Shown piece after piece: positions 1 through 18,370 of a stretch of DNA of 64,000 nt; position 1 is the first letter of the stretch; each line of letters starts with the position of its first letter. The notes below the pieces were generated by a model that was given only the letters and a program-made list of their open reading frames with translations, was not told where the DNA came from and searched no databases. The translations under genes and the position numbers were made by a program. The stretch is taken from positions 110,774 through 174,773 of the forward strand of contig CAZIPI010000001.1 of NCBI GenBank assembly GCA_964541235.1. The letters run 5' to 3'. Origin of the DNA: an uncultured bacterium (GTDB lineage: Bacteria; Fermentibacterota; Fermentibacteria; Fermentibacterales; JCC-6).

Positions 1-389
1 AAGGCAATGGTGGGAACGGTGTACTTCAGTGCCTGCCGCCAGACCGTCTCGGTCTGGGGTTCCACCCCGCCCACGGCGCAGAACACGGCCACCCCTCCAT
101 CCAGGACCCGAAGGGACCTTTCCACCTCGGCGGTGAAATCAACGTGGCCGGGAGTGTCTATGATGTTTATGGCCACGTTCTTCCACATGCATCTGGTGGC
201 GGCGGAGACTATGGTTATACCCCTCTCCCTTTCCTGGGGCATCCAGTCCATCACCGCGGTGCCATGGTCAACGTCGCCCATGCGGTGCGTGCGTCCCGTG
301 TAGTAGAGGATCCGCTCGGTAACAGTGGTCTTGCCCGCGTCAATGTGGGCGAAGATACCGATGTTCCGGAGAGCGCTGGGCGTGTTCAT
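1..389 (-). CDS. Elongation factor G family translational GTPase, N-terminal ~129 aa only (gene continues off the left edge)
   Basis: Reverse translation from ATG at 387-389 gives [43 protein letters not shown]...[45 protein letters not shown]. This carries the G1 (AHIDAGKTT) and G3 (DTPGHVDF) GTPase motifs and the EF-G-specific layout. An in-frame stop lies just upstream at 423-425. It is not in the ORF track because it is truncated by the window edge. Confidence 0.8.
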
Positions 390-457
390 GGAAAGACCTG
401 TCCCCCCCTGCTGAAGCGGTTTTCAGGAGGGCAACCTTACAATGGCGGGGGGTATTG

Positions 458-958
458 TCAAGTTCGGCGGTAGATGGAAAGCTCCCTCTCCGCCCTGCGG
501 GGATCAGGGTCGGGAACGGCCTCCACAGCTTCTATCAGAGCTATGTACTCACCGGGAAGGCGGTTCTCCAGAGCGCCCCTGACCACATGTTCACGGTACC
601 AGTCGAAGGGCTTCAGTGCCGGGTCAATGGCGGTGGCGCAGTAAACCCAGGCGCTGATCCTGGAACCGTCCATCATGGTCAGTTCCACCAGCCTGTTCTC
701 GTAGCCGTGCCCCACACCCTCAATGGCATCAAGAACCCCCTTCTCATCGGGCTTCAGGCTGTACACCACCCCCAGCACCTCATGGTCGGGATCCCCGGTG
801 AGACATGCGTCGCACTTGGCCGAGCCGTCCCTCTCGCCCGCCTTGTGAAAGGCCAGCCTGTAGCCTGAGAGCCTGCCGACACCCACCCTGACAGCGGACG
901 GGATCCGCGAGCAGAGCCTTGCTGTGGACATGTTTGAACCGTAGGCGAAGTAATGCAT
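458..958 (-). CDS. Gamma-glutamylcyclotransferase-like protein (AIG2/GGACT fold)
   Basis: The ORF 458-1018 contains the motif YFAYGSNM typical of GGCT/AIG2-like enzymes. The start was moved to the internal ATG at 956-958 (MHYFAYGSNMS), which overlaps the upstream stop by 1 nt. Confidence 0.65.
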   Translation of the reverse strand: MHYFAYGSNMSTARLCSRIPSAVRVGVGRLSGYRLAFHKAGERDGSAKCDACLTGDPDHEVLGVVYSLKPDEKGVLDAIEGVGHGYENRLVELTMMDGSRISAWVYCATAIDPALKPFDWYREHVVRGALENRLPGEYIALIEAVEAVPDPDPRRAERELSIYRRT

Positions 959-1872
959 CAGTACCCCTGTCCCGTCAGGAACCTGCAGCCCCCGCCGCAC
1001 CCTCCGGCATGGGCGCACTTTTCACTGCAGCCCCCGCCGGACGATCCCCTGAATGCCTTCACCGCTTCCAGGGCGGAAAGGGCTGAAAAACCTTCTTCAA
1101 CAACGCTGCCCAGCACGTCCGGGCTCTGTTCGCACACCCTGAGAGTGCCGTCGGGGCCCACCGCCCATTTGCTTTCCCCGCAATGGCAGGCCGTGGGGGT
1201 TACACCCCAGTCCTCCAGCCCGGGGAAGACGCAGGGTTCCAGGGGAACACCGGCGAAGACCGGGAGCCCTGTTGAAGAGCAGACCTCTCCAGCGGAGCGG
1301 AAGGCCTGTTCCAGCTCCGTCCTGGACGGCAGATAGGCCTGGTCATCAGCCAGCCCGCGGGGAACGAAGCGGTTGAGGCAGAGCGCAGAGGCGCCCAGCG
1401 CGGCGGCGAGCCCCGCTGCGCTCCCTGTCCGGTGAAAGCTATCGAATGTTACACAGAAGGATACCGTGACGGTGGCTCCCGTGGACGAGGCGGCGGCGAT
1501 CCCCGCCGAAACCTCTCTGAAAGGGGTTTCAACTCCCACATCGAAGTGCCGCACCCCGGAGTCGAAGAGGCGCCGGGCAAGGGCGTCGTTCAGCAGGACC
1601 CCGTTGGTGGCCACCGCAACGGTGAAACCGCGGGAACGCGCCAGGGCCGCTATATCGGGGAGGTCCTCCCTGAGAAGGGGTTCGCCTCCGGTTAGGGTTA
1701 TCCCCGAGCCGGAGGCATGGGCCTCAAGGCTTCCGAACAGCATGTCTATCCCGGAGAGGGGCAGTTCTTTGGGAACCGCGCTTCCAGGCCTCCTCCAGTA
1801 GTTGTAGCAGAACCCGCAGGACAGGTTGCACCGGGGTGTGACCTCAAAGGCGAACCAGCTGCCTTTCAACAA
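958..1872 (-). CDS. Radical SAM protein with C-terminal SPASM/twitch-like Cys-rich domain (304 aa)
   Basis: A CNLSCGFC (CxxxCxxC) motif sits near the N-terminus, followed by a G-rich SAM-binding stretch. The C-terminus has multiple Cys (CHCGESKW...CEQSP...CSEKCAHAGGCGGGC) as in the auxiliary Fe-S cluster domain of SPASM maturases. Confidence 0.8.
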   Translation of the reverse strand: MLKGSWFAFEVTPRCNLSCGFCYNYWRRPGSAVPKELPLSGIDMLFGSLEAHASGSGITLTGGEPLLREDLPDIAALARSRGFTVAVATNGVLLNDALARRLFDSGVRHFDVGVETPFREVSAGIAAASSTGATVTVSFCVTFDSFHRTGSAAGLAAALGASALCLNRFVPRGLADDQAYLPSRTELEQAFRSAGEVCSSTGLPVFAGVPLEPCVFPGLEDWGVTPTACHCGESKWAVGPDGTLRVCEQSPDVLGSVVEEGFSALSALEAVKAFRGSSGGGCSEKCAHAGGCGGGCRFLTGQGY

Positions 1873-2571
1873 CTAGACCGTCAGCAGGTGGGCGAAGAGC
1901 GGTTCGAGGTAGGGCTGCATCTCCTGGAAGCCCCGAAGGCGATCGCTGCCTGCCCCGTTCTCGAGGATCTCGTAGAGAAGCTGCACCTCCATGATGGTAT
2001 CGCCGGGAAAACGCTGCATGTCAGGGTGATGGCCGATGCCGGAAACACTCTGGAGAAGCGCCCATGTCTGGAACCGCATGAAGAGGGTGTCCGAGGCGGA
2101 CCGGTACACGGCCTCGGTGAGATCTCCCGCGGAACGAAGTCTTTCCAGCTCCCTGAGCCTTGCGTCAAGGTCGAAAAGTGCGTTCTCTTCCATCAGCCTG
2201 TTCCAGGGGGGCATCATCCTGGTCATGTGGACCGGGTTCATGCGGCTCAGCCTGAGGGCCCTGGTCTCCACCATGAGAGCCGCTGCCGAGACTGCCCTGG
2301 AGAGGCCATCGGTGCTGCCGGACGGGTTCAGGGCCTCCACGCACCGGCGTATCCCGGCTACAATGCTGTCGGCCTTGACGGGGTCCAGCTCACCCGAGGG
2401 TCCGAAGGATCCGCCCGACCCGGGAACCCTGTTCAAAAGCAGCCAGTACTCCCTTATCCTCCCCCACTCCCTGGAATCGAGAACGTTGCGAAGCGCCGCC
2501 CTCTCCACAGGGCTCAGAAGCTGATGGCACTCCTGGGGAATAGCCGGGGGAGGATCGTGATGGATCATCAT
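1873..2571 (-). CDS. Hypothetical protein (232 aa), no recognisable motif; co-operonic with the radical SAM enzyme
   Basis: The ORF abuts the radical SAM start (1872/1873). It overlaps the upstream FMN reductase stop by 4 nt. Coding-like codon usage. Confidence 0.5.
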   Translation of the reverse strand: MMIHHDPPPAIPQECHQLLSPVERAALRNVLDSREWGRIREYWLLLNRVPGSGGSFGPSGELDPVKADSIVAGIRRCVEALNPSGSTDGLSRAVSAAALMVETRALRLSRMNPVHMTRMMPPWNRLMEENALFDLDARLRELERLRSAGDLTEAVYRSASDTLFMRFQTWALLQSVSGIGHHPDMQRFPGDTIMEVQLLYEILENGAGSDRLRGFQEMQPYLEPLFAHLLTV

Positions 2572-3167
2572 CGAGCCTCCCCCTTAAGGGCTGAAGTGAT
2601 CCTGACCAGTTCCGCTGCAACCCTTTGAACGGCCCTTGCGTTCCTTGCGTCGGCAAACCCTCCGCTTCCGTCAAAGGCCTGGCCGGCCGAACCCACGGCA
2701 TGCTGTGATGGGATGACCAGCACACCGAGGTTCGCAAGCAGTGACCTGAGGACGGAAAGGCTTCTGAGCCCGCCCAGACTGCCCGGGGAGGCCGAGACCA
2801 GCGCGGCGGTCTTTCCGCGGAAGGCGCTCAGGGGTTTCTCGTCAGGGGTACGGGACCGTGACGCCCAGTCCAGCGCGTTCTTCAGCAGCGGAGTGATTGA
2901 ACCGTTGTACTCGGGAGAGGCTATGAGAAGACCGTCATGCCGGGAAAGCAGCTCCTTGAACGAGAGAGCGTTCCGGGGTATCCCTTCCGAAGACTCGAGG
3001 TCTTCGTTCATGAGGGGCATGGGGTGGTCGCCCAGTTCGATGATGGTCACCTCTCCGCCGGCCTCCTCCACGGAAGCGGCTGCAAGCCCCAGGAGAGCCC
3101 TGTTGTACGAGCCCTTCCTCGAACTGCCGGCGAAAGCCAGTATCGAAGGCCTGCCTCCGTCCCCCAT
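2568..3167 (-). CDS. NAD(P)H-dependent FMN reductase family protein
   Basis: Motifs LAFAGSSRKGSYN and IASPEYNGSITPLLKNALDW match the NADPH-dependent FMN reductase / flavodoxin-like fold family. Confidence 0.75.
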   Translation of the reverse strand: MGDGGRPSILAFAGSSRKGSYNRALLGLAAASVEEAGGEVTIIELGDHPMPLMNEDLESSEGIPRNALSFKELLSRHDGLLIASPEYNGSITPLLKNALDWASRSRTPDEKPLSAFRGKTAALVSASPGSLGGLRSLSVLRSLLANLGVLVIPSQHAVGSAGQAFDGSGGFADARNARAVQRVAAELVRITSALKGEAR

Positions 3168-3718
3168 CAGTCGCCGGCGCCCTTCACCCCGGCCCAGGTG
3201 GTGGGCAGAAGGGCCTGGTACTCCAGTATCCCTATCTCGGCTGTGGCGATGAACGCGTGATAGGTCGAGAAATCATCGGCGCCGTCGGGGCCCCGTGCCA
3301 GCAGTATCGGATAGGTGTTCCCGGGAACCAGGGGCTTGTCGTACTGGTCGCCTGAGTCCAGCGGTATGGTGAACCTTATCTCTGTGTTCCCTCCCGATTC
3401 GGAACCTCCGTCAATGGTGACGTCGTTGCTGCCCCCCAGAAGGGTGTCGGCCCTGTGGGATGTGGTCTGCCATCCCCAGTCATCACGGATGTAGGTGCTG
3501 CCCCCAGAAACGTATCCGATGATGATGTTGGCGTCCAGCATCATCATGGATGGATCGAACCCCACCGCCACCCAGCCGGTGGTGGGCCCTGTGAGTTCCA
3601 CGGCCAGGTCGCCCCCGGCAAGCGTTTCCCACCTGAGAACGAAACCCGAAACCTCGATCTCCTGCCATGCCAGAGTTGTTCCTGCCAGGACTGCGCAAAC
3701 GATCAATGACCTCATCAT
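3167..3718 (-). CDS. Secreted DOMON-like domain protein (paralog of 3802-4335)
   Basis: Start placed at MMRSLIVCAVLAGTTLAWQ (signal peptide), preceded by a GAAAGGAAGG Shine-Dalgarno sequence. It shares the block TTGWVAVGFDP..MM.DAN.IIGYV.GG..YIRDD with the divergent neighbour. The ORF-track start at 3763 is an upstream extension. Confidence 0.55.
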   Translation of the reverse strand: MMRSLIVCAVLAGTTLAWQEIEVSGFVLRWETLAGGDLAVELTGPTTGWVAVGFDPSMMMLDANIIIGYVSGGSTYIRDDWGWQTTSHRADTLLGGSNDVTIDGGSESGGNTEIRFTIPLDSGDQYDKPLVPGNTYPILLARGPDGADDFSTYHAFIATAEIGILEYQALLPTTWAGVKGAGD

Positions 3719-3801
3719 GACAAGCCTTCCTTTCACAAGCGGACCTGTTGCATAATAATACAATTACGGGGTAAGGAAACCACATCGAAGAGGGAGGAAT
3801 C

Positions 3802-4335
3802 ATGAAAAGGTTGATGGCGCTTTCCGGTCTTCTTCTCCTGGCTTCCGGCTGCGGCGACGACGCCACGGGACCGTCGGGCAACGAGGGGTGGAAAAGCTAC
3901 ACCGCCGGCGGAATGGAGATACAGTGGAGGGTCACCGAGAACCAGACCGTACTGCAGGTCAAGCTGTCCGCGCCCACCACGGGATGGGTGGCGGTGGGCT
4001 TCGACCCGACGGTGATGATGAAGGACGCCAACTTCATAATCGGTTACGTGCAGGGTGGCACCGGCTACATCCGCGACGATTTCGGGACCGGGGCGACCAC
4101 TCACCAGGCGGACACCACTCTCGGCGGGACCAGCGACGTGACACTGCTGGGCTCCGGAGAGACCGGCAGCACAACGACCATCGAGTTCTCCATACCCATG
4201 AATTCCGGTGACGAATACGATTCGGCCCTGGTTCAGGGCAGCACTCACACCTTTCTTCTGGCGTACGGACCCAACGGCGGCGACGACTTCGGCACTCCCC
4301 ACCAGTTCGTTCAGGCCGTTGCGCTTGAGCTGTAG
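3802..4335 (+). CDS. DOMON-like domain lipoprotein (lipobox LLASGC)
   Basis: Signal peptide MKRLMALSGLLLLASGC. The conserved block TTGWVAVGFDPTVMMKDANFIIGYVQGGTGYIRDD is shared with 3167-3718. Confidence 0.6.
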   Translation: MKRLMALSGLLLLASGCGDDATGPSGNEGWKSYTAGGMEIQWRVTENQTVLQVKLSAPTTGWVAVGFDPTVMMKDANFIIGYVQGGTGYIRDDFGTGATTHQADTTLGGTSDVTLLGSGETGSTTTIEFSIPMNSGDEYDSALVQGSTHTFLLAYGPNGGDDFGTPHQFVQAVALEL

Positions 4336-4344
4336 GAGGATCAC

Positions 4345-5076
4345 ATGAGAAGCGCAGGCATGATTCTTCTTGTCGCGGTCCCTCTTCTGGGATACGGCCC
4401 GGGAATGCTCAACATCGAAACACCCTCCCCCTCAGTGGAAAAGGGCAGCATCGAGTTCAGGCTGAACCACCGTTTCTACGGCTCGGCCCTTAAGGACGAG
4501 CCGCTGGAGACCTTCTTCGGAATGGACAACGGGGCCAATGTGGGCGTGGAACTGGGATGGTTCCCGGTGGACGGGCTGGAGGTACGGGCGGGACACGTGC
4601 GCTCGGGCAGGGAGTACGGTCTGTCCGGCCACTGGAGCGCCTACATCGACAGGTTCCAGGCATCGTTCTCCATGGGTTTCTCATCGGTGAAACCCGCCGC
4701 CAATCAGGACAGGGAAGGGGGGCTTACTCTCCTGGGAGCCTTCTCGGCCCCTTTCGCTTCGGACAGGGTGATACCCACGCTGAACTACAGCTACCACCAG
4801 AGGCTCGACAGGCACGGCCCCGGATTCGGGCTCTCCGTTGGTCTGTCCGACAACACGGCCCTTGTTGGCGAGTACTTCCCCGTGGTTGACCGTGACGCGG
4901 ACGATCCGGCGATACTCTCCGAGGACGCGTTCAGTTTCGGCGTGAGAAGGACCACCTGGGGCCACCAGTTCGTGATCTGCCTTGGCAACGGAAAGGGTGT
5001 GGGCCCCCATGGCCAGCTGAACGGGGCGGCCACCAACGACCTTTCGGTGGCGTTCACCGTGAGAAGGATGTTCTGA
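4345..5076 (+). CDS. Putative outer-membrane beta-barrel protein (hypothetical), C-terminal Phe
   Basis: N-terminal hydrophobic signal, alternating amphipathic segments, and a terminal ...VAFTVRRMF (aromatic C-terminus typical of OMPs). It lies 9 nt after the DOMON lipoprotein gene. Confidence 0.45.
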   Translation: MRSAGMILLVAVPLLGYGPGMLNIETPSPSVEKGSIEFRLNHRFYGSALKDEPLETFFGMDNGANVGVELGWFPVDGLEVRAGHVRSGREYGLSGHWSAYIDRFQASFSMGFSSVKPAANQDREGGLTLLGAFSAPFASDRVIPTLNYSYHQRLDRHGPGFGLSVGLSDNTALVGEYFPVVDRDADDPAILSEDAFSFGVRRTTWGHQFVICLGNGKGVGPHGQLNGAATNDLSVAFTVRRMF

Positions 5077-5117
5077 CTTCCCGCCCGGGAGGTCCCGGGG
5101 AGGACGGACAGGGAGGC

Positions 5118-6389
5118 ATGGAGGTTGGCGGGGTAGCCCTTTCCTCGGGTCGGTACGCCGCGAACCCCCCGGAAAGGTTCGGCGTCATCGTCGCCGGAGC
5201 GGGCCCCGCAGGCCTGTTCTGCGCGCAGAGCATTCGAAACCGCGAAGGCGGGGTTCTGCTGCTGGAGCGGAACCCGGGGCCGGGAGCAAAACTTCTGCTC
5301 TCGGGTTCGGGGCAGTGCAACTTCACACACACGGGCAGTGTTCAGGATCTCACCTGCAGGTACGGCAGGGCGGGGAACTTCGTGAAACCGGCGCTTCACG
5401 CATTCTCCAACTCCGATCTGGTGGCCTTCATCGAATCTTTGGGAGTGCCGACCGCCGTCAGGGATGACGGAAAGGTCTTCCCCGCATCCATGAGGGCGTC
5501 CGATGTGCTTGCGGCCCTGCAGGGGAGATGCCGGGAGAGAGGCGTGAGGATCATCTGCGGCTCCCGGGTCACATCGGTATCCCACGACGTGAGCGGTTTT
5601 ACCGTCACTGCCGAAGGCCGCGAATTCCTGTCCCGAGCCCTGGTGCTCTCCACCGGGGGTTGCTCCCATCCCGAGACGGGTTCCACCGGGGACGGTTACG
5701 CCGTGGCCGGATCCCTGGGGCATACCATCGTCGAGGTTACGGAAGCCCTGGCACCTGTCGGCGTCAGCGATCCGCTTATCAGAGGCCTGGCAGGGATCTC
5801 GGTGAGGGACGCAACGGTGCGTCTGGTCCGGGACGGCCGAAGAACGTTCGCGGTGACCGGGGATGTGCTTTTCACCGGCAGCGGTCTCTCGGGCCCCGGC
5901 ATCCTCGATCTGAGCCGGTACATAAGGGAAGGCGATGTCCTTTGGGTCTCGATGACCGGAACAGACCCCGATCAGCTTGCGGAACGGCTGTCGGAGGAGT
6001 TCGAGGGTGGAAGGACGCCGGTGAACGTCCTGCGGAACCTGGGCATTCCCGCAAGGCTCTCCCGGGTCATCCTGCAGAGCGGCGGCATTCCTCCATCCGT
6101 AAGGGCGGCGGAACTGCCGGGCACCCTGCGCAGGAAGGTGCTGGAACTGGTAACCGCCTTTCCGGTGAGAGTGGCGCGCAAGGGCGGTTTCAGTGTGGCG
6201 ATGGCCACGGCGGGAGGTGTGCGCCGGGATGAGATCAACAGGCACACCATGGAGTCAAGGATCCTTCGGAACCTCTTCTTCGCGGGAGAGATCATGGACG
6301 TGGACGGCGACACCGGGGGGTACAACATCCAGTGGGCGTTCTCGTCCGCCTGCGCCGCTGCCCTGGGTGCCTCGGAGACAACCGTCTGA
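5118..6389 (+). CDS. NAD(P)/FAD-dependent oxidoreductase, HI0933/BaiN-like flavoprotein family
   Basis: GVIVAGAGPAGLFCA dinucleotide-binding motif, overall architecture and the C-terminal GGYNIQWAFSSA stretch resemble HI0933-like aminoacetone-oxidase-family proteins. Confidence 0.7.
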   Translation: MEVGGVALSSGRYAANPPERFGVIVAGAGPAGLFCAQSIRNREGGVLLLERNPGPGAKLLLSGSGQCNFTHTGSVQDLTCRYGRAGNFVKPALHAFSNSDLVAFIESLGVPTAVRDDGKVFPASMRASDVLAALQGRCRERGVRIICGSRVTSVSHDVSGFTVTAEGREFLSRALVLSTGGCSHPETGSTGDGYAVAGSLGHTIVEVTEALAPVGVSDPLIRGLAGISVRDATVRLVRDGRRTFAVTGDVLFTGSGLSGPGILDLSRYIREGDVLWVSMTGTDPDQLAERLSEEFEGGRTPVNVLRNLGIPARLSRVILQSGGIPPSVRAAELPGTLRRKVLELVTAFPVRVARKGGFSVAMATAGGVRRDEINRHTMESRILRNLFFAGEIMDVDGDTGGYNIQWAFSSACAAALGASETTV

Positions 6390-6470
6390 CAGGGCGCACC
6401 GCTCTGCTGGCACAGCTCCCGGACCTTCAGCTATAATCCGGCAACTTTCAGCAGAAGGGCTTTCGGGGCA

Positions 6471-7700
6471 ATGAACAGAAACACACGGGCATGGTCCATC
6501 GTACTGGCTGGAATGGGCATCAATCTCTCTTTCGGGGTTCTCTACGCATGGAGCATCTTCGCCGCGAATCTCCGGGATTCCTTCGGCTGGAGCAGCACCC
6601 AGGCCTCCCTTCCCTACACCATGGCGGTGGCCATGTTCGCAGTGATGATGATCTTCGGGGGGCGTCTGCAGGACAGGTACGGCCCCAGGGCCGCCGTGAC
6701 CCTTGCCGGGATCCTGGTGGGGGGCGGCATGATCCTTGCCAGCCTGCTGCCAACGGTCCCCGGTCTCGCGCTTTCGTTCGGCCTTCTGGCCGGTTCCGGA
6801 ATAGGCCTGGGTTACTCCGCCACGACACCCGTCGCGATCAAGTGGTTCCCCCCGGAGAGGAAGGGGCTCATTTCGGGAATGGTGGTGGGAGGATTCGGGG
6901 CAGCGACCCTCTACATAGCCCCCCTTACCAACCATCTCATCGAGAACCACGGCGTCTTCAGCTCATTCAGGATACTCGGGGCATGTTTCCTGCTGGTGGT
7001 GGTGGGTCTGGCCCAAACCCTGCGGAACCCTTCCGAGCCATTGCCCGCCAGGGCGGCGGGGCCCTCCGCTGCCGCGGGCGACATGAACTGGAAGCAGATG
7101 ATCCGCACCCCGCAGTTCTACCAGTTGTGGGTGATGTTCCTTGCCGGAGCGCTTGCGGGCCTGATGATCATCGGACACCTTTCCACCATTGCCAGGGTCC
7201 AGACCGGCCGGAACTACGGCTTCATGCTAGTGGCTTTCATGGCGGTCAGCAACGCCCTGGGAAGGCCCATAGCCGGGACGATCTCGGACAGGCTGGGAAG
7301 AGCTAAGACCATGATGATCCTCTACATAGCTCAGGGTGCGGTACTTCTGTTCTTCTCGGGCTTCTCGGGGTTCGCTTCGATATTGTTCGGGGCGGCAGTG
7401 GTCACTTTTGCTTACGGGGCCATGCTTTCGGTGTACCCTTCGGCTGTGGGGGACTTCTACGGTACCAGGAACCTGGGCCTCAACTACGGTGTGCTGTTCA
7501 CAGCCTGGGGAGCGGGTGGGCAGATCGGACCCATCATGGCGGGCCGGATCCTTGACGCCACAGGCGGCTATGACGCCGCATACCGCACGGCGGCGGCGCT
7601 CTGTTTCCTGGCGGCGGTCATCGGGTTCACCCTGAAACCGGTGAAGAAGCCGGGCTTACCCTCAGGAAGCCCCACCCGGCAGGGACCCGTGCATTCTTGA
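6471..7700 (+). CDS. MFS transporter, oxalate/formate antiporter (OFA)-like
   Basis: Twelve predicted hydrophobic segments. The N-terminus WSIVLAGMGINLSFGVLYAWSIF is typical of OFA-family MFS proteins. Confidence 0.75.
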   Translation: MNRNTRAWSIVLAGMGINLSFGVLYAWSIFAANLRDSFGWSSTQASLPYTMAVAMFAVMMIFGGRLQDRYGPRAAVTLAGILVGGGMILASLLPTVPGLALSFGLLAGSGIGLGYSATTPVAIKWFPPERKGLISGMVVGGFGAATLYIAPLTNHLIENHGVFSSFRILGACFLLVVVGLAQTLRNPSEPLPARAAGPSAAAGDMNWKQMIRTPQFYQLWVMFLAGALAGLMIIGHLSTIARVQTGRNYGFMLVAFMAVSNALGRPIAGTISDRLGRAKTMMILYIAQGAVLLFFSGFSGFASILFGAAVVTFAYGAMLSVYPSAVGDFYGTRNLGLNYGVLFTAWGAGGQIGPIMAGRILDATGGYDAAYRTAAALCFLAAVIGFTLKPVKKPGLPSGSPTRQGPVHS

Positions 7701-7821
7701 CTCATGGGCTGAACGGCCCAATACTCATCCCTTGACGTGGGCTCATCAGTAAAGGCGCGCCGCAGGGTATCGTCAGCTGTTTGAGGGTGCCACCGGCTTA
7801 CAGGCCGACGAGGGGAGAGAA

Positions 7822-8631
7822 ATGAGAAGATTGCTTGCCGTACTGCTGTCGCCGGCCGCGGCCATGGCGATCACGATAACAGCCGACGACTTCAACTACG
7901 CAGCCGGCATCACGGGCTCCTTCTACTATCTCACCGGGGGGACCTGGCCCGGGTGGAGCGGAAGTGTGGATTCCTGGGACTTCTCGGGCATCAGCAGTTC
8001 CGAGTACGCCGGATTCGACGTCATGGCCAAGTCGGCCTCGCCCCACGGCGGAGACTTCGGCAGCGCCGATTACGCTGAGAGGGTGGTACAGGCCGATGTG
8101 GGAACCGTCTGGTTCTACTCTTCCCTCAACGGCGACTACCTCCAGCACGGGGCCACACTTCCCTGGCTCTCGTACCAGTACAAGGTCACCTACTCACCTG
8201 TCATAGCCTGCCTTGACTTCCCTCTCAGCGTGGGCAAGAGCTGGAGTTACGAGTTCACTTATGACTTCTGGGTCGGGTTCGTTCATGTGATAGTCAATGA
8301 AAGCCACTCAAAGGAGATCGTGGGCTCCGGGATCATCAAGGTGCCCGCTTCGGGAGGCCAGTGGTGGCCCTGCCTGGTCCTGCGTGACCATGCGGTGATC
8401 TCCGACAACTGGGGTGTGACCAACAAGAACGTATGGATCTACAGCTGGCTGGTCCCCGACGGTTTCATAGGCCAGAGCGGGGTGGCCTCCATCGAGAGCG
8501 TTGACGGGGCCGGCCCTGGGTTCACGAACTACTCCAGACGTTATGTCCTGGCCAGCTCCAACATCAACCCCGACCCCTGGAGCGCCATGACCAGCACCAC
8601 ATGGGGCAGGATCAAGAGCCTTCCCCATTAG
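7822..8631 (+). CDS. Secreted hypothetical protein (269 aa)
   Basis: Signal peptide MRRLLAVLLSPAAAMA. Aromatic/Gly-rich sequence with no catalytic motif recognised. Confidence 0.45.
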   Translation: MRRLLAVLLSPAAAMAITITADDFNYAAGITGSFYYLTGGTWPGWSGSVDSWDFSGISSSEYAGFDVMAKSASPHGGDFGSADYAERVVQADVGTVWFYSSLNGDYLQHGATLPWLSYQYKVTYSPVIACLDFPLSVGKSWSYEFTYDFWVGFVHVIVNESHSKEIVGSGIIKVPASGGQWWPCLVLRDHAVISDNWGVTNKNVWIYSWLVPDGFIGQSGVASIESVDGAGPGFTNYSRRYVLASSNINPDPWSAMTSTTWGRIKSLPH

Positions 8632-8664
8632 TGCAGCCGGTTCCACACCTTTCCAAGGAGGAAG

Positions 8665-9339
8665 ATGATCGGCCCTCTGCTGCTTGCGGTATCAGTTCTT
8701 GAATTGCAGCCCGCAGATCCCTCGTTCCACCGGCGGCTGACCTTCGGCCTTGAGATCGGCGGTTCCCTTTCGGTGGGCGAGTTGCTTCCCATCGAGTTCA
8801 AGCCCTCGCCGGACGCCGAGTGGGGGATCATCGTGCCGGTCCCCCTCTACCCGGGGAACGGCCTGGACGTGGGTGCCTTCGTGGAGTACCGCCCCACGGA
8901 ATGGATGGGTGTCAGGGCGGGCTGGGGAACACAGGTCCCGGTGCAGCCCATGGCCGCCCTGCCGAGTTACATACGGGACGTGACGGGAAGCTTCAACCGG
9001 TTCGGGCTGGACCTCTTCGGTTACGCCGGCGGGGGAAGGATGTACGGTGACGCGGGAATGGGAGTCTTCTTCTCCAAGGCCTCCTACAGGTTCCTTTTCG
9101 ATGACTTCACCACACAGGAGGAGGAGTGGGAGACCGTCACCGGTGATACCTGGACGGCGGGGATAACACCCCAGGTCGGGATGGACCTGTTCCTGAACGA
9201 CGGAACGGCCATAGGGGGCAGGCTTCTGGCACCCATATCACTTGTCTCCGATGACGGCAAGGATGACACGTCCGACGAAGGTTTCGGAAACTACTCCGGG
9301 GGGATCCAGCTGCGCCTGCATTTCAAGCGGCTGTTCTGA
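8665..9339 (+). CDS. Putative outer-membrane beta-barrel hypothetical protein, C-terminal Phe
   Basis: N-terminal hydrophobic segment, Gly/aromatic-rich sequence, and a terminal LRLHFKRLF. It lies immediately downstream of the secreted protein. Confidence 0.4.
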   Translation: MIGPLLLAVSVLELQPADPSFHRRLTFGLEIGGSLSVGELLPIEFKPSPDAEWGIIVPVPLYPGNGLDVGAFVEYRPTEWMGVRAGWGTQVPVQPMAALPSYIRDVTGSFNRFGLDLFGYAGGGRMYGDAGMGVFFSKASYRFLFDDFTTQEEEWETVTGDTWTAGITPQVGMDLFLNDGTAIGGRLLAPISLVSDDGKDDTSDEGFGNYSGGIQLRLHFKRLF

Positions 9340-9354
9340 CCACCGTCCCGGCGC

Positions 9355-11397
9355 TCACCGGTCATCGGGCTCCCCGCCGTGCCAGATGCCTCCACCGATT
9401 ATTGACTGGGCGATGTTGGTGAAGTGGTCCGCTGCCCTTTCACAGTACTCTATGTAGTCCAGAATGGCAAGACCGGTCATGTTGGCCAGGTGCGAAGCCA
9501 GTGCCTCGCCGTACTTCTCCCGGGCCTCTTCGCTTATCTTGTTCATGCGCCCCTCGAGTATCAGCAGGCGCTGGGCAGCTCCGATATCGTTATGCTTGAT
9601 GGTCTTGACCGCCTCCCTGGCCATCTCGGTCAGAGCGCTGGATGCCGACACCGCAAGGGCGGGCAGCGGCCCCTCCTCGGACGTGACGTCGCCGGACACC
9701 CTGGACCTGGCCTCCATGATGTTCACCGCGTGGTCCGAGATGCGCTCAAGGTCGTTGATGGAGTGGATTATCACGGGAAGGCTCAGTGACTGCTCCCGGG
9801 ATAGCTCACCCTGGAACAGCTTCGAGGCGTAATCGGTCATGTCCCTCTGCATCACGTCAACCCTGTCCTCCATCCGGACTATCTCGTCCGCGTCGTGGCG
9901 CCCGGTGAGGAAGTGCTCGGAAGCCATCAGCAGGCACTCCCCGGAGTACTCGGCCATCCTCCCCATCTCGCGGTTCAGGGTGTCTATGGCCAGCACCGGG
10001 CTTTCGAGAAGGTTGAAGTCGAGGACCATCCCGGGTTCCAAACCGGCCGCCACCCGTTCATCCGGCACCAGCAGCCTGCAGAGCCTGGTGAGAAGAGGGA
10101 CCAGGGGAATGAACACGATGCAGTTGGCGATGTTGAAGATGGTGTGGGCGTTGGCCACCTGGCGCATGGTGTCGGCGGATGTCAGCCGGACAAGTTCGAG
10201 GAACAGGCCGTCCTTCCTGAGAGCGAACAGCATGAAATAGGCGGCGCCCAGCAGGTTGAAAAGTGTGTGGGCCATGGCCGCCTGCCTGGCCGCCCTGTTG
10301 CTTCCCAGGGCCGCAAGCTGGGCTGTGATGGTGGTTCCGATGTTGTCGCCGAGAACCAGGAACACTGCTCCCTGCAGGTTCACAAGGCCGATCCCCGCCA
10401 GGGTCATGGTGAGGCCCACGGTGGCGCTCGAACTCTGCACCAGGACGGTGATGAGGGTCCCGGCGAACACCGCCAGAAGGGGGTGCGTGCTGAAATCGGC
10501 GAAGAAGTTCCTCACGGGGGCACTGGCGCGAAGGGGCTTCATGACGTCGCTCATCACGGACATGCCCATGACAAGAAGGCCGAGACCCATCAACGCCCTG
10601 CCCCACAGTTTCAGGTTTCGTCCCCGCCCCAGGAAAGAAAGGGCGAAGCCCGCGGCGATTATGGGGAACGCGTAGTCACTGATCTTGAAGGCGATGAGCT
10701 GGCCGGTGATGGTGGTGCCTATGTTGGCCCCCAGGATCACTCCCACCGCCTGCTGCAGCGTCATCAGCGAGCTGTTCACGAAACCCACGGTGATCACCGT
10801 CGTGGCGCTGGAACTCTGGATGGCAGCGGTGACCAGGGCCCCTGTGGCAATGCCCATTATCCTGTTGGAAGTAATGCGCTTGAGTATCCCCTTCAGCCTG
10901 TTCCCGGCAACCTGCTGAAGGTTGGATGACATGAACTGCATTCCCAGGAGAAAGATGGCCAGACCGCCCAGCACCTGAAAGATGATGAAGAAAAGGTTGA
11001 TGGAGACAAGGGTGATGGATGCCCTGCAGAGTTCGCCCTCGGAATCGCCTGCGACGGCGGTCACCAGTATCTCGCCCATATCCTCGCCGAACTCAAGGTT
11101 CATCATGGCCATCCCGCACGAGTCGGTATAGACCACGTACCCCGACAGCCCCTCCTGCATCACCGTCATGTAGCCGGGATGGGGGTGAAGGAGGGCGTCG
11201 CCGCTCTGGACCACGAAGTTCACCGGAACGCCCAGGGCCGGGGTGCAGTCGCCGGTGTGCAGCACCTGAACCGACAACGGTTCGGAGAGCATCCGGCCGG
11301 TGTTCCCGTAGGTCTTTCCGGACATGGAACTCACCTGCAGCTCGGCGGCATAGGCCAGCGGGAACAACAGAAGCGACAACAGCAGGAAGACGCGCAA
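9355..11397 (-). CDS. Na+/phosphate cotransporter (NptA/type II family) with C-terminal PhoU-like domain and an unusual ~120-aa N-terminal secreted domain
   Basis: Repeated GANIGTTITAQL / GDNIGTTITAQL motifs are characteristic of NptA. The C-terminal helical region is PhoU-like. The N-terminus has a signal peptide (MRVFLLLSLLLFPLAYA) before the transporter core. Confidence 0.8.
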   Translation of the reverse strand: MRVFLLLSLLLFPLAYAAELQVSSMSGKTYGNTGRMLSEPLSVQVLHTGDCTPALGVPVNFVVQSGDALLHPHPGYMTVMQEGLSGYVVYTDSCGMAMMNLEFGEDMGEILVTAVAGDSEGELCRASITLVSINLFFIIFQVLGGLAIFLLGMQFMSSNLQQVAGNRLKGILKRITSNRIMGIATGALVTAAIQSSSATTVITVGFVNSSLMTLQQAVGVILGANIGTTITGQLIAFKISDYAFPIIAAGFALSFLGRGRNLKLWGRALMGLGLLVMGMSVMSDVMKPLRASAPVRNFFADFSTHPLLAVFAGTLITVLVQSSSATVGLTMTLAGIGLVNLQGAVFLVLGDNIGTTITAQLAALGSNRAARQAAMAHTLFNLLGAAYFMLFALRKDGLFLELVRLTSADTMRQVANAHTIFNIANCIVFIPLVPLLTRLCRLLVPDERVAAGLEPGMVLDFNLLESPVLAIDTLNREMGRMAEYSGECLLMASEHFLTGRHDADEIVRMEDRVDVMQRDMTDYASKLFQGELSREQSLSLPVIIHSINDLERISDHAVNIMEARSRVSGDVTSEEGPLPALAVSASSALTEMAREAVKTIKHNDIGAAQRLLILEGRMNKISEEAREKYGEALASHLANMTGLAILDYIEYCERAADHFTNIAQSIIGGGIWHGGEPDDR

Positions 11398-11617
11398 TGC
11401 AGTTCTCCGTTGAGGGAACCTTGAGGACCACCACCCCTGATCGGGAACGAAAGGGGAATATGGGCATTTGGGGCGGGAATGAAAACCTTGCGGGGAGGGT
11501 TGCGCCTCAGGCCGCCGATGCTATGTTCACGGGTCCGCACCCCCCGGATGGATGCTGGGCGGTTCGGTAAGTCTGTATTCATGACACTGGTATTATCATA
11601 TAAAAATGGAGGATAAC

Positions 11618-13810
11618 ATGCTTACCCCCTGGTTCTGGTTCGCTCCCGCCGGCTCGGTTCTCGCGCTGGTGGTGGCCTTCCTTTTCTACAGGAGCATGAT
11701 GGCCGAGAGCGAGGGCACGCCCAGAATGGCCTCCATCGCCCTGGCTGTTCGAAAAGGCGCCATGGCCTATCTGAAGCAGCAGTACAGGGTGGTTGCCGTT
11801 GTCTTCCTCTGCCTCACCCTGTTCTTCGCCTTCATGGCCTATGTTCTGAAAGTGCAGAACGGCTGGGTGCCGTTCGCCTTCGTCACTGGCGGGTTCTTCT
11901 CGGGCCTGGCGGGGTTCTTCGGGATGAAGACCGCCACATACGCTTCTTCGAGAACCGCAAACGCCGCCATGCAGTCGCTGAACCGGGGTTTGACCCTGGC
12001 ATTCAGGAGCGGCGCGGTGATGGGGCTGGTGGTGGTGGGGCTGGCCCTTCTGGACATCTCGATATGGTTCATCATACTGAACAGGTTCTACCCTGCTTCC
12101 CAGGGGCCCGCGTCTCTGATAGTCATCACCACCACAATGCTCACCTTCGGCATGGGGGCCTCCACACAGGCGCTCTTCGCCAGGGTGGGCGGCGGCATCT
12201 TCACAAAGGCGGCTGACGTTGGAGCCGACCTGGTGGGCAAGGTCGAGGCAGGCATCCCCGAGGACGACCCCAGGAACCCGGCCACCATAGCCGACAACGT
12301 GGGCGACAACGTTGGGGATGTTGCAGGGATGGGGGCCGACCTTTACGAGTCGTACTGCGGAGCCATCCTTGCCACCGCGGCGCTGGGCGCCACAGCATAT
12401 GCCGCCTCGGGGGCGGCGGTGCAGATGAACAGCGTGGTGGCCCCCATGCTGATCGCCGGGATCGGAACCATTCTGTCCATAGCCGGGATCATGATAGTCA
12501 GGACCAGGGAGGGGGCGACGCAGAGACAGCTTCTCGATTCACTTGGAAGGGGAGTGAACTTCAGCTCGATACTCATTCTGCTTGCTTCCGCCCTTGTTCT
12601 GAACCTTCTTGGAATACCCAACGCCTGGGGTATCTGGGGTTCCCTTTTCACGGGCCTGGTGGTTGGGATAGTCATCGGCAGGTCAACGGAGTACTTCACA
12701 TCACACGGTTACAGGCCCACCAGGGCCATAGCCGCCCAGGCTGCAACAGGCCCGGCTACCGTCGTGATCTCAGGCATCGGTACCGGTCTGATCTCCACTG
12801 CAATACCTGTGTTCATGGTTTCGCTGGGCACCATCCTTGCCTTCTTCTTCGCTTCCGGCTTCGATTTCCAGAACCTGCCCATGGGGCTCTACGGGATCGG
12901 GATCGCCGCGGTGGGAATGCTTTCCACGCTCGGGATCACACTGGCCACCGACGCCTACGGTCCGATAGCGGACAATGCCGGCGGCAACGCCCAGATGGCT
13001 GGCCTGGGGTACGAGGTAAGGGAGAGGACCGATGCCCTGGATGCTCTTGGCAACACAACCGCAGCCACTGGAAAGGGCTTCGCGATTGGCTCGGCGGCGC
13101 TAACGGCCCTGGCCCTGCTTGCGGCCTACCTCGAGGAGATAAGGATAGGCCTTCTCAGGGTCGGGGTGGAGTTCTTCCAGTTGGGCGGCGCCACCGTTGA
13201 GGTTGCCTCGGCCTCCCTTCGGGAGCTGATGGCTTTCTACAATGTCCACCTGATGTGCCCCACTTTCCTGGGTGGAACGTTCATCGGCTCCATGATGGCC
13301 TTCCTGTTCTGCGGCCTCACCATGAACGCCGTGGGGCGGGCCGCGGGACGCATGGTCGAGGAGGTCAGGAATCAGTTCCGGGAGAAGCCGGGCATAATCC
13401 AGGGCACCGATGAGCCCGACTACGCCAGGTGCGTTGCCATATCCACCCGAGGGGCCCAGCGGGAGATGATACTTCCCGCAGGGCTGGCGATAGTGGTCCC
13501 CATCGTCACCGGGGTGGTCCTGGGTGTGGGCGGGGTCATGGGTCTGCTTCTCGGGGGGCTGGCGTCGGGCTTCGTACTGGCTGTTTTCATGGCCAACGCC
13601 GGCGGTTCATGGGATAACGCCAAGAAGTTCGTCGAAGAGGGGAACATGGGCGGCAAGGGTTCAGAGGCTCACAAGGCCACCGTCATCGGGGATATGGTGG
13701 GCGACCCCTTCAAGGACACCTCGGGGCCCAGCCTGAACATCCTCATCAAGCTCATGAGCATGGTTTCCATTGTGATGGCCGGCTTCACCGTCACGTTCCA
13801 TTTCCTGTGA
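11618..13810 (+). CDS. hppA: Membrane-bound K+-stimulated/H+ (or Na+)-translocating pyrophosphatase
   Basis: Signature GADLVGKVEAGIPEDDPRNPATIADNVGDNVGDVAGMGADLYESY and ~16 TM segments. The start was chosen at the second ATG (11618), which has a GGAGGA Shine-Dalgarno sequence 5 nt upstream; the ORF-track start is 11606. Confidence 0.9.
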   Translation: MLTPWFWFAPAGSVLALVVAFLFYRSMMAESEGTPRMASIALAVRKGAMAYLKQQYRVVAVVFLCLTLFFAFMAYVLKVQNGWVPFAFVTGGFFSGLAGFFGMKTATYASSRTANAAMQSLNRGLTLAFRSGAVMGLVVVGLALLDISIWFIILNRFYPASQGPASLIVITTTMLTFGMGASTQALFARVGGGIFTKAADVGADLVGKVEAGIPEDDPRNPATIADNVGDNVGDVAGMGADLYESYCGAILATAALGATAYAASGAAVQMNSVVAPMLIAGIGTILSIAGIMIVRTREGATQRQLLDSLGRGVNFSSILILLASALVLNLLGIPNAWGIWGSLFTGLVVGIVIGRSTEYFTSHGYRPTRAIAAQAATGPATVVISGIGTGLISTAIPVFMVSLGTILAFFFASGFDFQNLPMGLYGIGIAAVGMLSTLGITLATDAYGPIADNAGGNAQMAGLGYEVRERTDALDALGNTTAATGKGFAIGSAALTALALLAAYLEEIRIGLLRVGVEFFQLGGATVEVASASLRELMAFYNVHLMCPTFLGGTFIGSMMAFLFCGLTMNAVGRAAGRMVEEVRNQFREKPGIIQGTDEPDYARCVAISTRGAQREMILPAGLAIVVPIVTGVVLGVGGVMGLLLGGLASGFVLAVFMANAGGSWDNAKKFVEEGNMGGKGSEAHKATVIGDMVGDPFKDTSGPSLNILIKLMSMVSIVMAGFTVTFHFL

Positions 13811-13817
13811 CGGAGGG

Positions 13818-14648
13818 TCAGCCCAAGGCGCGGTCCCAGGGGGCGGGTATCTCCGCAGGGAACCGCCACAGGTCGGTGTGCCCCTGGTCCGCCACGTACA
13901 GACCGTCACCCGAGTGCCGCCCGTAACCGAGCCATGAGTGGAACGGAACCTCGTTGATGCAGTCACCCGATACGATGGTCTTCGTCTTCTTGCGGGGCTG
14001 GTCACGAAGCTCCTGGTCAGCATCGGTGAACCGGCTCAGTGCGGCCAGGTTGAAGAGCCCGGTCTGCAGTTCGGTGAAGATAACCTGGCGGAACACCTTT
14101 CCCGGCCTGTGGGTCGAATACCATGCGTACTCGACCGGGGTCAGGTTGGATACCAGGAGCAGTTGGATCGGGCACATCACCAGGTAGATGTGGCGCTCCC
14201 TCTGAGCGGTGTCGGGAACACCGGCGGCGGCCGCCACCTCTGACGGCGACATCTCCTCGTGACAGCTGCCCGGCCCGAAATGGTGCAGCGGCCCCCCCTT
14301 CTCCATCTCCAGCACCTCTCCGCCGGTCTTCACAAGGAACACACGCCTGTATGCGCTAATGGGAGTGCAGGAAAAGGCGTTGTTGGAAAGGGCGGTCTTT
14401 GTGCGCTTGCCCGCGGCGGAAGCCGCCAGGGCGCTCATGGAATCGCCCGAAGGGTCCCGCCATCCGCCCTCCTCAAGGTAGCTGAAGCCGGGCTTTGTGC
14501 CTTCGATGACAAGGTCCACAAATATCTTCCGGCCCTTGAAGTGCTTGCCGGAGCCCGGGCTTGTGTGCCGGGCAAGACCCTCGATCCCCAGGGATGTGGC
14601 TGTTATGACGCCCTGCGGGATCCAGAGGACAAGACCAGGATCAGCCAT
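13818..14648 (-). CDS. Hypothetical protein (276 aa)
   Basis: Long ORF convergent with hppA, with no motif recognised by eye. Confidence 0.4.
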   Translation of the reverse strand: MADPGLVLWIPQGVITATSLGIEGLARHTSPGSGKHFKGRKIFVDLVIEGTKPGFSYLEEGGWRDPSGDSMSALAASAAGKRTKTALSNNAFSCTPISAYRRVFLVKTGGEVLEMEKGGPLHHFGPGSCHEEMSPSEVAAAAGVPDTAQRERHIYLVMCPIQLLLVSNLTPVEYAWYSTHRPGKVFRQVIFTELQTGLFNLAALSRFTDADQELRDQPRKKTKTIVSGDCINEVPFHSWLGYGRHSGDGLYVADQGHTDLWRFPAEIPAPWDRALG

Positions 14649-14773
14649 TCCCCACGCTCCTTTGCTTGCGCCCGGCCAGGGGCATACAACGGCTCTTCGG
14701 TCTTCGACCCCGGAGACCCTTCAAAAAAAGAATAGCGAGAACGGCAGGAACAGTCAAGGAAACCGGGGGGTTG

Positions 14774-15853
14774 TCAGTACCTGAGGATCAGGGCCATCCT
14801 CTGGTAGTTGTCCAGGGCTCCGTCCGGAACGAAGACGACCTCTCCCTTGCCGGCTATGACCGCCTCGATGATCTCATCCACCGCGTCATCGATCACACCC
14901 GGTGATCCAGGAGAATCGGACGGCGTGACGCCCATCCCCGTTCCGTCAACCGTCGCCGGACAATGAAAACCCTCCTCCACAAGAAGGACCTTGCCCCTCC
15001 CCTCATGCGACGCAGCCCATATCCCGCCAAGTGTCGCCAGGACCCGGTCTGCTGCGGCTGCCCTGGAGAGTTCATCGATCCTGGACTGCCTGATCCCGGC
15101 GAGATGCTCCTCGACCCGGGGCCAGACCATTGCACCCAGGTCATGAACCGGCGTTCCGTCATGGCTGCCCTTCAACGCACCCCTGACAGGGACGGACGAT
15201 TGGTCGCGGAACATGGATACGAACTTGTCAACCCCCGTGACGAAGAGAGGAAGCGGTTCGGCGGCGGCATATCCGGCCAGGGAGGAGGCAACCGTCATGA
15301 AGAACTGCCTGTGTCGCTGGTCACGGAAGGCCGACCGGCTCACTCCCCTGCCTCCGGGGAGAGAAGTCGCCCCGCCGGGACCTGTATGCTCCATTGGAAA
15401 GCTGCCGTCCCTGACCTCACTCAGGGTGTCACGGAAGCCCTCGTACAACCGGGTCGGCTTCTCGCTCAGAACCAGAAGCCAGTACCTGGCGGAGCGGTTC
15501 AGTGCGAAGACCAGGTCCCTGGTCAGGAACGTCTCGTCAACGACCACCCTCTCCCTGAGGGTGAATGGAAGATGGAACACCCTGTACATGCTGCTGTTTG
15601 CGAACACAGCCATCCCGTCAAGGTTCACGTTGTGGTCCACCGAATCCGCAGCTTCGTTGAGGTTGCGCAGGACTCCGGCGATCTGGCGCTTCCCGAACTC
15701 CTTCATCAGCCTGTCCACGGCCTGACCGACAAGGTTCTTCAACCTCACCGGATCCTGCCTGTTCTCAGGGAATGTGCGGTTGGCGGGCATGGTGACCGTT
15801 ACTGCGGGGTATCCCCTCTCCTTCTGCAGCAGCTCCAAGTCCAGACGGTTCAT
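14774..15853 (-). CDS. Hypothetical protein (359 aa), translationally coupled to the upstream antiporter gene
   Basis: The ATG overlaps the antiporter stop (ATGA, 15850-15853), and an AGGAAGGGA Shine-Dalgarno sequence lies upstream. Soluble protein with no canonical motif. Confidence 0.5.
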   Translation of the reverse strand: MNRLDLELLQKERGYPAVTVTMPANRTFPENRQDPVRLKNLVGQAVDRLMKEFGKRQIAGVLRNLNEAADSVDHNVNLDGMAVFANSSMYRVFHLPFTLRERVVVDETFLTRDLVFALNRSARYWLLVLSEKPTRLYEGFRDTLSEVRDGSFPMEHTGPGGATSLPGGRGVSRSAFRDQRHRQFFMTVASSLAGYAAAEPLPLFVTGVDKFVSMFRDQSSVPVRGALKGSHDGTPVHDLGAMVWPRVEEHLAGIRQSRIDELSRAAAADRVLATLGGIWAASHEGRGKVLLVEEGFHCPATVDGTGMGVTPSDSPGSPGVIDDAVDEIIEAVIAGKGEVVFVPDGALDNYQRMALILRY

Positions 15854-18195: not shown

Positions 18196-18328
18196 AAGGA
18201 CAGCAGCGATGGCAATGCCGAAGGTGAATGCAGGATCTGACGGATCAAGACCGTGAAGAACGCTGGCCAGAGAACTCTCCCTTCAGGCTTCCCCTGTGAA
18301 ATATTCGGCGGTACGGGGCGCATGGAAA

Positions 18329-18353
18329 GGGGCGCCCCCGGGTAGGGCGCCCC
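18329..18353 (-). terminator. Putative intrinsic terminator after rpsG
   Basis: Perfect 9-bp GC stem GGGGCGCCC/GGGCGCCCC with a 7-nt loop, followed on the minus-strand transcript by UUUCC. Confidence 0.5.
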
Positions 18354-18370
18354 GTCATGCCTTTAGGGGG

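Follow-up and report, generated by a model that had tools for sequence, protein, structure and literature searches.

What does a small radical S-adenosylmethionine (SAM) enzyme act on when the operon that encodes it matches no known cassette? The question is raised by positions 3718 to 458, read on the minus strand, of a 64,000-nucleotide stretch of contig CAZIPI010000001.1 from an uncultured Fermentibacterota bacterium (hereafter, the window, to which coordinates refer unless a locus is named). As the original prediction had listed them, five contiguous open reading frames (ORFs) lie there, encoding in order a DOMON-domain protein (DOMON_A), a flavin mononucleotide (FMN) reductase, a 232-residue protein without a recognizable domain (U232), a radical SAM enzyme with SPASM-type cysteines (rSAM), and a gamma-glutamylcyclotransferase (GGCT)-like enzyme. 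All five are genuine genes, each with homologues at 50-80% identity and none with a frameshift. That prediction, made from the letters and ORFs alone, had proposed a redox-coupled GGCT/FMN-reductase/rSAM pathway, in which the 232-residue protein might be the substrate or a scaffold. Our results point to an undescribed protein-maturation pair and not to a five-enzyme pathway; the best reading is that just two of the genes, U232 and rSAM, make up the functional core and are produced by coupled translation.

The pairing is carried first by its conservation. Across the roughly 36 loci inspected, a U232 homologue lies immediately upstream of rSAM in all but one, and the same adjacency is visible on short contigs that hold only the 5' end of rSAM. 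The pair is found in Fermentibacteria, in Bacteroidales (L013), in a metagenome-assembled genome (MAG) of the Pseudomonadota (L101), and on unassigned metagenomic contigs (L087, L089-L091, L094, L096-L100, and L102), with the nearest homologues annotated as Candidatus Fermentibacteraceae or Aegiribacteria. The distance from the U232 stop to the rSAM start is 0-20 nt in 19 other loci. Further, the two proteins diverge in step: across 24 non-redundant loci, the pairwise identities of U232 correlate with those of rSAM (r=0.92, Mantel p ~5e-4), U232 being the faster-evolving member (mean pairwise identity 26% vs 42% for rSAM). In the locus search, 8 of 143 motif matches were confirmed by tblastn against the divergent window protein. 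The guess that the 232-residue protein is a substrate or scaffold is thereby the earlier claim best backed by comparative genomics, since U232 is the sole constant companion of rSAM; full-text literature searching returned no description of the pair.

The exception is Candidatus Sabulitectum silens JCC-6 (L014), where U232 consists of two overlapping ORFs that lie some 4 kb away from rSAM (4989-5839 and 9794-10839 of that locus) and rSAM is frameshifted in its SPASM region, which could reflect joint decay and pseudogenisation or an error of sequencing or assembly. The other neighbours of the pair vary by locus and include PMT_2/DUF5916 proteins, an FGE-sulfatase domain, toxin-antitoxin genes, and an SNF transporter. 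Specifically, a PMT_2 (ArnT-like) membrane glycosyltransferase follows the pair in Aegiribacteria-type loci (L005, L006, L012, and L019/L085; ~11000-14900), and a DUF5916-type protein of ~725 aa comes next in L006 and L012, confirmed by Pfam for L006 only; these loci hint at a cell-envelope context. An FGE-sulfatase (formylglycine-generating-enzyme-like) domain protein stands directly upstream of the divergent pair in L100 (865-1974) and was seen once.

The way in which the two genes are joined is a second line of evidence. Overlaps of 1-4 nt had been claimed throughout the operon, and they are present at three junctions (TGATG at 3167, ATGA at 2568-2571, and TGATG at 958). At the fourth, between U232 (1873..2571, minus strand) and rSAM (958..1872, minus strand), there is no overlap: the TAG stop directly abuts a TTG start, in frame and with zero spacer (1875-1870; 1870..1875 on the minus strand), and the sequence upstream of the TTG contains nothing resembling a Shine-Dalgarno element. 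In relatives, the rSAM start is instead a CTG within a CTGA overlap, in a different frame (near 8693-8699 in L001-L004 and at 9714-9717 in L103), which rules out that U232 and rSAM form a read-through or fusion protein. Throughout the window clade, rSAM begins with TTG or CTG and never with ATG or GTG. The junction is thus presumably a site of termination-reinitiation, and, with the TTG or CTG start touching or overlapping the stop codon of U232, the output of the enzyme would be tied to that of its partner. Because the start in this clade is a translationally coupled TTG or CTG, public gene calls often shorten rSAM to 217-261 aa and drop its CX3CX2C motif (P0006-P0014 and P0028).

The same compactness bears on whether a short precursor peptide accompanies the enzyme. 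There is no intergenic space within the five-gene operon and its flanks measure only 84 nt and ~70 nt, so that a separate precursor ORF has no room in the operon; elsewhere, no conserved small ORF stands beside the pair. A separate short precursor is therefore ruled out, in agreement with what had been read from the window, and so is a role for U232 as a PqqD-like or RRE-type peptide chaperone. Such a chaperone would be a winged helix-turn-helix with a three-stranded sheet and would match PF05402, whereas the U232 model is all-alpha and has no PF05402 match. No other PqqD or RRE partner was found, again as first suggested.

The enzyme itself resembles a SPASM protein in its cysteines. At 304 aa, rSAM falls within the radical SAM superfamily (PF04055, 70.4 bits vs a cut-off of 29.5; E 3e-19), and the CX3CX2C motif for its SAM-cleaving [4Fe-4S] cluster (C15, C19, and C22; 1807..1830, minus strand) is invariant in 38 homologues. 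The SPASM family is defined by a C-terminal seven-cysteine motif (CX9-15GX4C ... CX2CX5CX3C ... C) that holds two auxiliary clusters (PF13186 / TIGR04085). In rSAM, the pattern is complete and conserved (C214; C229-x12-G242-x4-C247; C282-x3-C286-x5-C292-x3-C296), with CX3C (C282-x3-C286) in place of the CX2C of the family motif; the auxiliary-cluster cysteines C214, C229, C231, C247, C282, C286, C292, and C296 (985..1233, minus strand) occupy conserved alignment columns. The cysteine cluster that had been noted is therefore upheld as a pattern, although the window protein scores 17.1 bits on PF13186, below the cut-off of 21.5 that many of its homologues exceed. Because only 14 residues precede CX3CX2C, rSAM lacks an N-terminal recognition (RRE) domain.

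Comparison with solved structures places rSAM among enzymes that modify peptides and proteins. Profile searches align its family end to end with PqqE (6c8v, E 2e-32) and SkfB, and with anSME, MoaA, and others over the core only. The AlphaFold2 (AF2) model, which has alternating beta and alpha elements (mean predicted local distance difference test score [pLDDT] 90), is nearest to SkfB, PqqE, anSME (template-modelling [TM] scores of 0.73-0.75 for anSME), and SuiB. Each of these four enzymes takes hydrogen from a peptide or protein. When scored against the profile of its own family, the U232-linked rSAM clade reaches 210-456 bits and other radical SAM enzymes at most 182, with two exceptions: L100, which is linked to U232, scores just 166 bits, and L023, which lacks U232, scores 264. 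Outgroup enzymes at 23-28% identity (from Hippea/Desulfurellales, Thermoplasmata, Patescibacteria, and others) have different neighbours and no U232. In L023 (9159-10984), a Prevotellaceae MAG, the related rSAM is preceded by a pair of small lipoproteins, paralogues of 92 and 146 aa that are not U232-like and bear repeated (T/S)CY(D/K) motifs; this may be a different, cysteine-based rSAM/lipoprotein system.

The partner is unlike any named family. As its lack of a recognizable domain had suggested, U232 matches no family in Pfam (E 0.01), NCBIfam, or PADLOC, its distant members likewise match none in Pfam or NCBIfam, and all relatives inspected are called "hypothetical protein" and nothing else. 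An exhaustive HMMER search of 1.84 billion representative proteins yielded a family of just 140, with 66 members reaching E <=1e-10, and a homologue search with a broad U232 alignment added few members. A typical member is 260-340 aa long, and its N-terminus holds either a signal peptide, a lipobox, or a transmembrane helix ahead of a second helix that bears a lipobox. Under a strict hydrophobicity criterion, 111 of 142 sequences of the family show a pronounced hydrophobic stretch at the N-terminus; outside the window clade, weaker yet visible signal or lipobox sequences are present in most of the others. The window clade (P0105-P0116) is the sole coherent group without a signal peptide; a TAA five codons 5' of the window U232 start excludes a longer N-terminus there, and the window-clade protein has lost its signal peptide.

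Sequence conservation within U232 is concentrated in four near-invariant residues (W36 97%, W43 99%, R104 97%, and E136 87%) and one loop, T/S117-R/H118-M119-x-P121-P/S/A122, in which R118 is conserved in 90%, M119 in 87%, P121 in 86%, and T/S117 in 83% of 135 sequences; the loop motif is invariant in alignments A5/A6. In the window, the loop codons T117-R118-M119-M120-P121-P122-W123 span 2203..2223 on the minus strand. Structure prediction, which the original prediction had proposed for this protein, gave an AF2 model of nine helices (pLDDT 77), all-alpha, and a fold search with it returned no match. The signature loop is a flexible, low-confidence stretch between helices 89-109 and 123-147, and the conserved residues are distributed over three helices and this loop. 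In Bacteroidales (L013 873-2468; P0117-P0127 and P0141), U232 is a protein of 490-535 aa with two tandem domains and an N-terminus combining a transmembrane helix with a lipobox.

Taken with the enzyme class, these features make it roughly an even proposition that rSAM is an anSME-like maturase that modifies its partner U232, mostly before export. Two systems offer a precedent. anSME acts directly on a full-length protein, a sulfatase, that is exported afterwards, and the cytoplasmic SPASM enzyme QhpD modifies a dedicated subunit, QhpC, that is later periplasmic. By analogy, U232-rSAM would work like these protein-maturing enzymes, with an undescribed partner family. Like anSME, rSAM is, by its cysteine pattern, a SPASM enzyme without an RRE, and it has a similar structure; however, its profile match to anSME (4k36/4k37) is limited to residues 11-165, so that it does not fall within anSME, U232 is helical and has neither a sulfatase fold or domain nor the C/S-x-P/A-x-R motif, and this rSAM is strictly gene-linked and translationally coupled to one partner. 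QhpC, for its part, is small and Cys-rich, and QhpD forms thioethers in it, whereas U232 has no conserved Cys and no linked dehydrogenase subunits.

In such a scheme, U232 and rSAM would be co-produced through coupled translation, rSAM would cleave SAM reductively, and the resulting 5'-deoxyadenosyl radical would attack U232. The likeliest site would be at or beside the exposed [T/S]-[R/H]-M-x-P loop (T117-P122; candidate peptide LSRMNPVHMTRMMPPWNR), and candidate chemistries would include a cross-link, dehydrogenation, epimerisation, or another reaction. Because of the N-terminal signals and lipoboxes, a cytoplasmic Fe-S enzyme could reach exported U232 members only before export, and in most lineages cytoplasmic modification would thus precede Sec- or Lol-dependent export or lipid anchoring. 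In the Fermentibacteria clade of the window, the pair, with its signal-less U232, has come to share an operon with a DOMON/FMN-reductase module, and sometimes a GGCT-like gene, upstream of fusA. A complete set of SPASM cysteines, closest relatives that modify peptides or proteins, and an absent RRE, as in anSME, all speak for a maturase.

Several observations weigh against it. Export is not universal, given the signal-less window clade, and no Cys, Tyr, or other classic donor of cross-links is conserved in the family. In the Bacteroidales double-domain proteins, the loop degenerates to SH(F/I)APP in the first domain and TRAIMP in the second, so that Met is not strictly required. Further, W36, W43, R104, E136, and the loop could constitute a ligand-binding site rather than a modification mark, and at 232 aa the protein exceeds the usual size of SPASM substrates by far. 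A bolder extension of the maturase reading, which we put forward tentatively, is that U232 defines a new class of helical proteins, most of them exported or lipid-anchored, that need an rSAM-installed modification or protein-derived cofactor at the T/S-R/H-M-x-P loop. The reaction would then take place on Thr, Arg, Met, or Pro, perhaps with a cross-link to a near-invariant Trp, and would be of a kind undescribed for any SPASM enzyme.

The ligand-binding argument also underlies the alternative that survives best, which we regard as possible but on the doubtful side. Here, U232 would be a partner and not a substrate; rSAM would act on a small molecule (a lipid, tetrapyrrole, or cofactor precursor) or on a protein encoded elsewhere, and the usually extracytoplasmic U232 would bind, carry, or use the product through a pocket of W36, W43, R104, E136, and the RMxP loop. 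The spread of conserved residues over three helices and a loop is binding-site-like, the PMT_2 and DUF5916 genes beside the pair in Aegiribacteria loci suggest envelope chemistry, and the best N-terminal matches in NCBIfam include AhbD, NirJ, MoaA, and Tes, all of them enzymes of small molecules. The imperfect retention of the loop motif in Bacteroidales fits as well. However, no further gene is consistently linked to the pair, so a second pathway component is not visible, and the full-length matches in sequence and structure are peptide and protein maturases. Translational coupling and co-divergence are also better explained by a direct physical relationship between the two proteins.

The five-gene pathway first proposed now appears improbable. 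Under that model, some redox-active small molecule or peptide would be synthesised or processed (by gamma-glutamyl cleavage, for example) through the joint action of rSAM, the GGCT-like enzyme, the FMN reductase, and DOMON_A, with U232 as a scaffold. Four of the original domain calls hold, since hidden Markov model searches matched PF03351, PF03358, PF04055, and PF06094 above their cut-offs. DOMON_A, a secreted protein (3167..3718, minus strand; 183 aa from the ATG at 3718), scores 69.7 bits against a cut-off of 32.7 (PF03351, E 3e-19) and starts with a hydrophobic signal-like sequence, MMRSLIVCAVLAGTTLA. The NAD(P)H-dependent FMN reductase (2568..3167, minus strand; 199 aa) scores 143 bits against a cut-off of 24 (PF03358, E 6e-42) and reaches no NCBIfam equivalog (SsuE, ArsH, or MsuE). 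The GGCT/AIG2-like protein (458..958, minus strand; 166 aa) scores 45.7 bits on PF06094 (cut-off 22.8) and 48.7 bits on PF13772 (cut-off 27), both at E ~1e-12, and its N-terminus, MHYFAYGSNM, fits the YGS(N/L) motif; it belongs to the GGACT/AIG2-like family.

It is the linkage of these genes to the pair that does not extend beyond close relatives. The window and L001-L004 show the same gene order with junctions of 0-4 nt; in L001-L004, whose rSAM is 55-59% identical, the ten-gene layout between rpsG and fusA is identical and includes GGCT. In L103, a deeper member of the same clade, the order is DOMON, FMN_red, U232, rSAM, and then elongation factor G (EF-G) directly; GGCT, a variable accessory gene, is absent there, and tblastn detects none. 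In L001-L004 and L103 alike, the gene after the operon is that of EF-G; in the window, the 5' end of fusA (1..388, minus strand) lies ~70 nt downstream of GGCT. The DOMON and FMN reductase genes adjoin the pair only in the window, L001-L004, and L103. None of GGCT, FMN reductase, or DOMON adjoins rSAM in the Fermentibacteria whose rSAM is 35-47% identical (L005-L012, L015, L016, L019/L085, and L086), nor in other phyla. The five genes are thus not a conserved functional unit, and the layout common to close relatives is explicable by recent common ancestry.

A DOMON gene next to a flavin reductase is, by itself, a recurrent pair in Fermentibacteria (window 2568-3718; L085 19498-20574; L005 18330-19500; L012 18918-20069). 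The reductases are non-homologous, being PF03358 FMN_red in the window clade and PF01613 Flavin_Reduct in L085, L005, and L012, the latter two assigned solely by N-terminal resemblance to the L085 gene. This suggests a DOMON-reductase module that functions independently of rSAM. Because this pair recurs separately, the window operon looks like a lineage-specific concatenation of [DOMON-FMN_red] and [U232-rSAM] with an optional GGCT. Two points remain in favour of a wider pathway: it is in the DOMON/FMN_red operon context that U232 has lost its signal peptide, and a flavodoxin-fold reductase could in principle feed electrons to rSAM. Nevertheless, with GGCT lacking in L103, the extra genes unlinked elsewhere, and the DOMON-reductase pair separate, a gamma-glutamyl or redox-coupled five-enzyme pathway is not indicated.

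A place for rSAM within a characterised system, as a divergent PqqE, MftC, anSME, AhbD/NirJ, sactisynthase, or TIGR04133 enzyme, is hardly credible. In favour of it is a generic similarity to all of these (E 1e-9 to 1e-17, with PqqE the best sequence match in the PDB). Against it, the scores lie 5- to 15-fold under the curated cut-offs, PqqA-D, MftA/B, sulfatase, and haem-biosynthesis neighbours are missing from the window and close loci, and the rSAM clade separates on its own profile as described above. As the prediction had anticipated, rSAM reaches no curated NCBIfam cut-off, its best scores being 35-63 bits vs cut-offs of 265-650. PqqE, though its best full-length match among solved structures and a SPASM enzyme with two auxiliary clusters, as rSAM is predicted to be, differs in score (TIGR02109, 48.4 bits vs 381) and in context: the window and L001-L004 contain no pqq genes (a PqqA-like peptide, PqqB/C, or PqqD), and the rSAM partner is 230-330 aa long. 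SkfB, SuiB, and CteB have the closest overall folds and perform peptide C-H activation aided by auxiliary Fe-S clusters, but they carry an N-terminal RRE and act on short leader peptides, and here there is neither an RRE nor a short precursor gene. TIGR04133 ('rSAM_w_lipo') is a SPASM family named for its pairing with a lipoprotein; many U232 members do bear a lipobox, yet the window and L013 enzymes score 45.1 and 64.9 bits vs a cut-off of 425 and belong to a different family. The small-lipoprotein locus L023 may be more akin to that pairing.

For AhbD/NirJ (TIGR04545 and TIGR04051/54/55), the match amounts to 62.8 bits over the N-terminal half only, vs a cut-off of 500, and no ahb or nir genes are neighbours; for MftC (TIGR03962), it is 34.9 bits vs 265, with MftA/B absent. 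Anti-phage viperin (pVip) was also considered and rejected, only the generic core at residues 9-102 being matched (NF038283, 55.6 bits vs a cut-off of 180). Membership in a known system is thus essentially excluded, all curated families tried having failed. A sulfatase gene does occur within the surrounding island of L002 and of L103.

SPASM enzymes are a major source of new post-translational chemistry, with most known cases acting on short peptides. The U232-rSAM maturase reading offers a minimal testable pair in this setting: an enzyme of ~300 aa without a recognition domain and a partner of 230-330 aa with one conserved loop as the candidate site, kept across several phyla and absent from Pfam and NCBIfam. 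If U232 is modified, SPASM chemistry would gain a substrate class at the level of proteins, perhaps together with a new reaction, and an orphan family of helical proteins, secreted or lipoproteins, from uncultured anaerobes would acquire a function. The rarity of the U232 family weighs against its importance. A practical lesson is that coupled rSAM genes with TTG or CTG starts are often miscalled, at the cost of the CX3CX2C motif.

Divergent to the operon lie DOMON_B, a lipoprotein (3802..4335, plus strand; PF03351, 73.9 bits vs the cut-off of 32.7, E 2e-20), and a DUF5777 beta-barrel protein (4345..5076, plus strand; PF19089, E 9e-13), a layout common to L001-L004 and L103, with an HI0933-type flavoprotein and a major facilitator superfamily (MFS) transporter beyond them on the same strand. 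The classical rpsL-rpsG-fusA (str) operon is interrupted here by ~18 kb of unrelated genes (window 1-18838; rpsG at 18371-18838, minus strand; fusA start near 388, minus strand). This island comprises a Na/H exchanger, a baeRF-family protein, an H+-pyrophosphatase, a Na/Pi-PhoU transporter, the MFS transporter, the HI0933 flavoprotein, DUF5777, the two DOMON genes, and the rSAM operon. Because the islands at the same rpsG/fusA site in L001, L003, and L103 are shorter and different, the site looks like a hotspot of gene insertion. Within the window island, the minus-strand gene at 14774-15853 encodes an archaeo-eukaryotic release-factor-like protein (baeRF_family3, E 4e-36), beside a 781-aa Na/H exchanger-domain protein.

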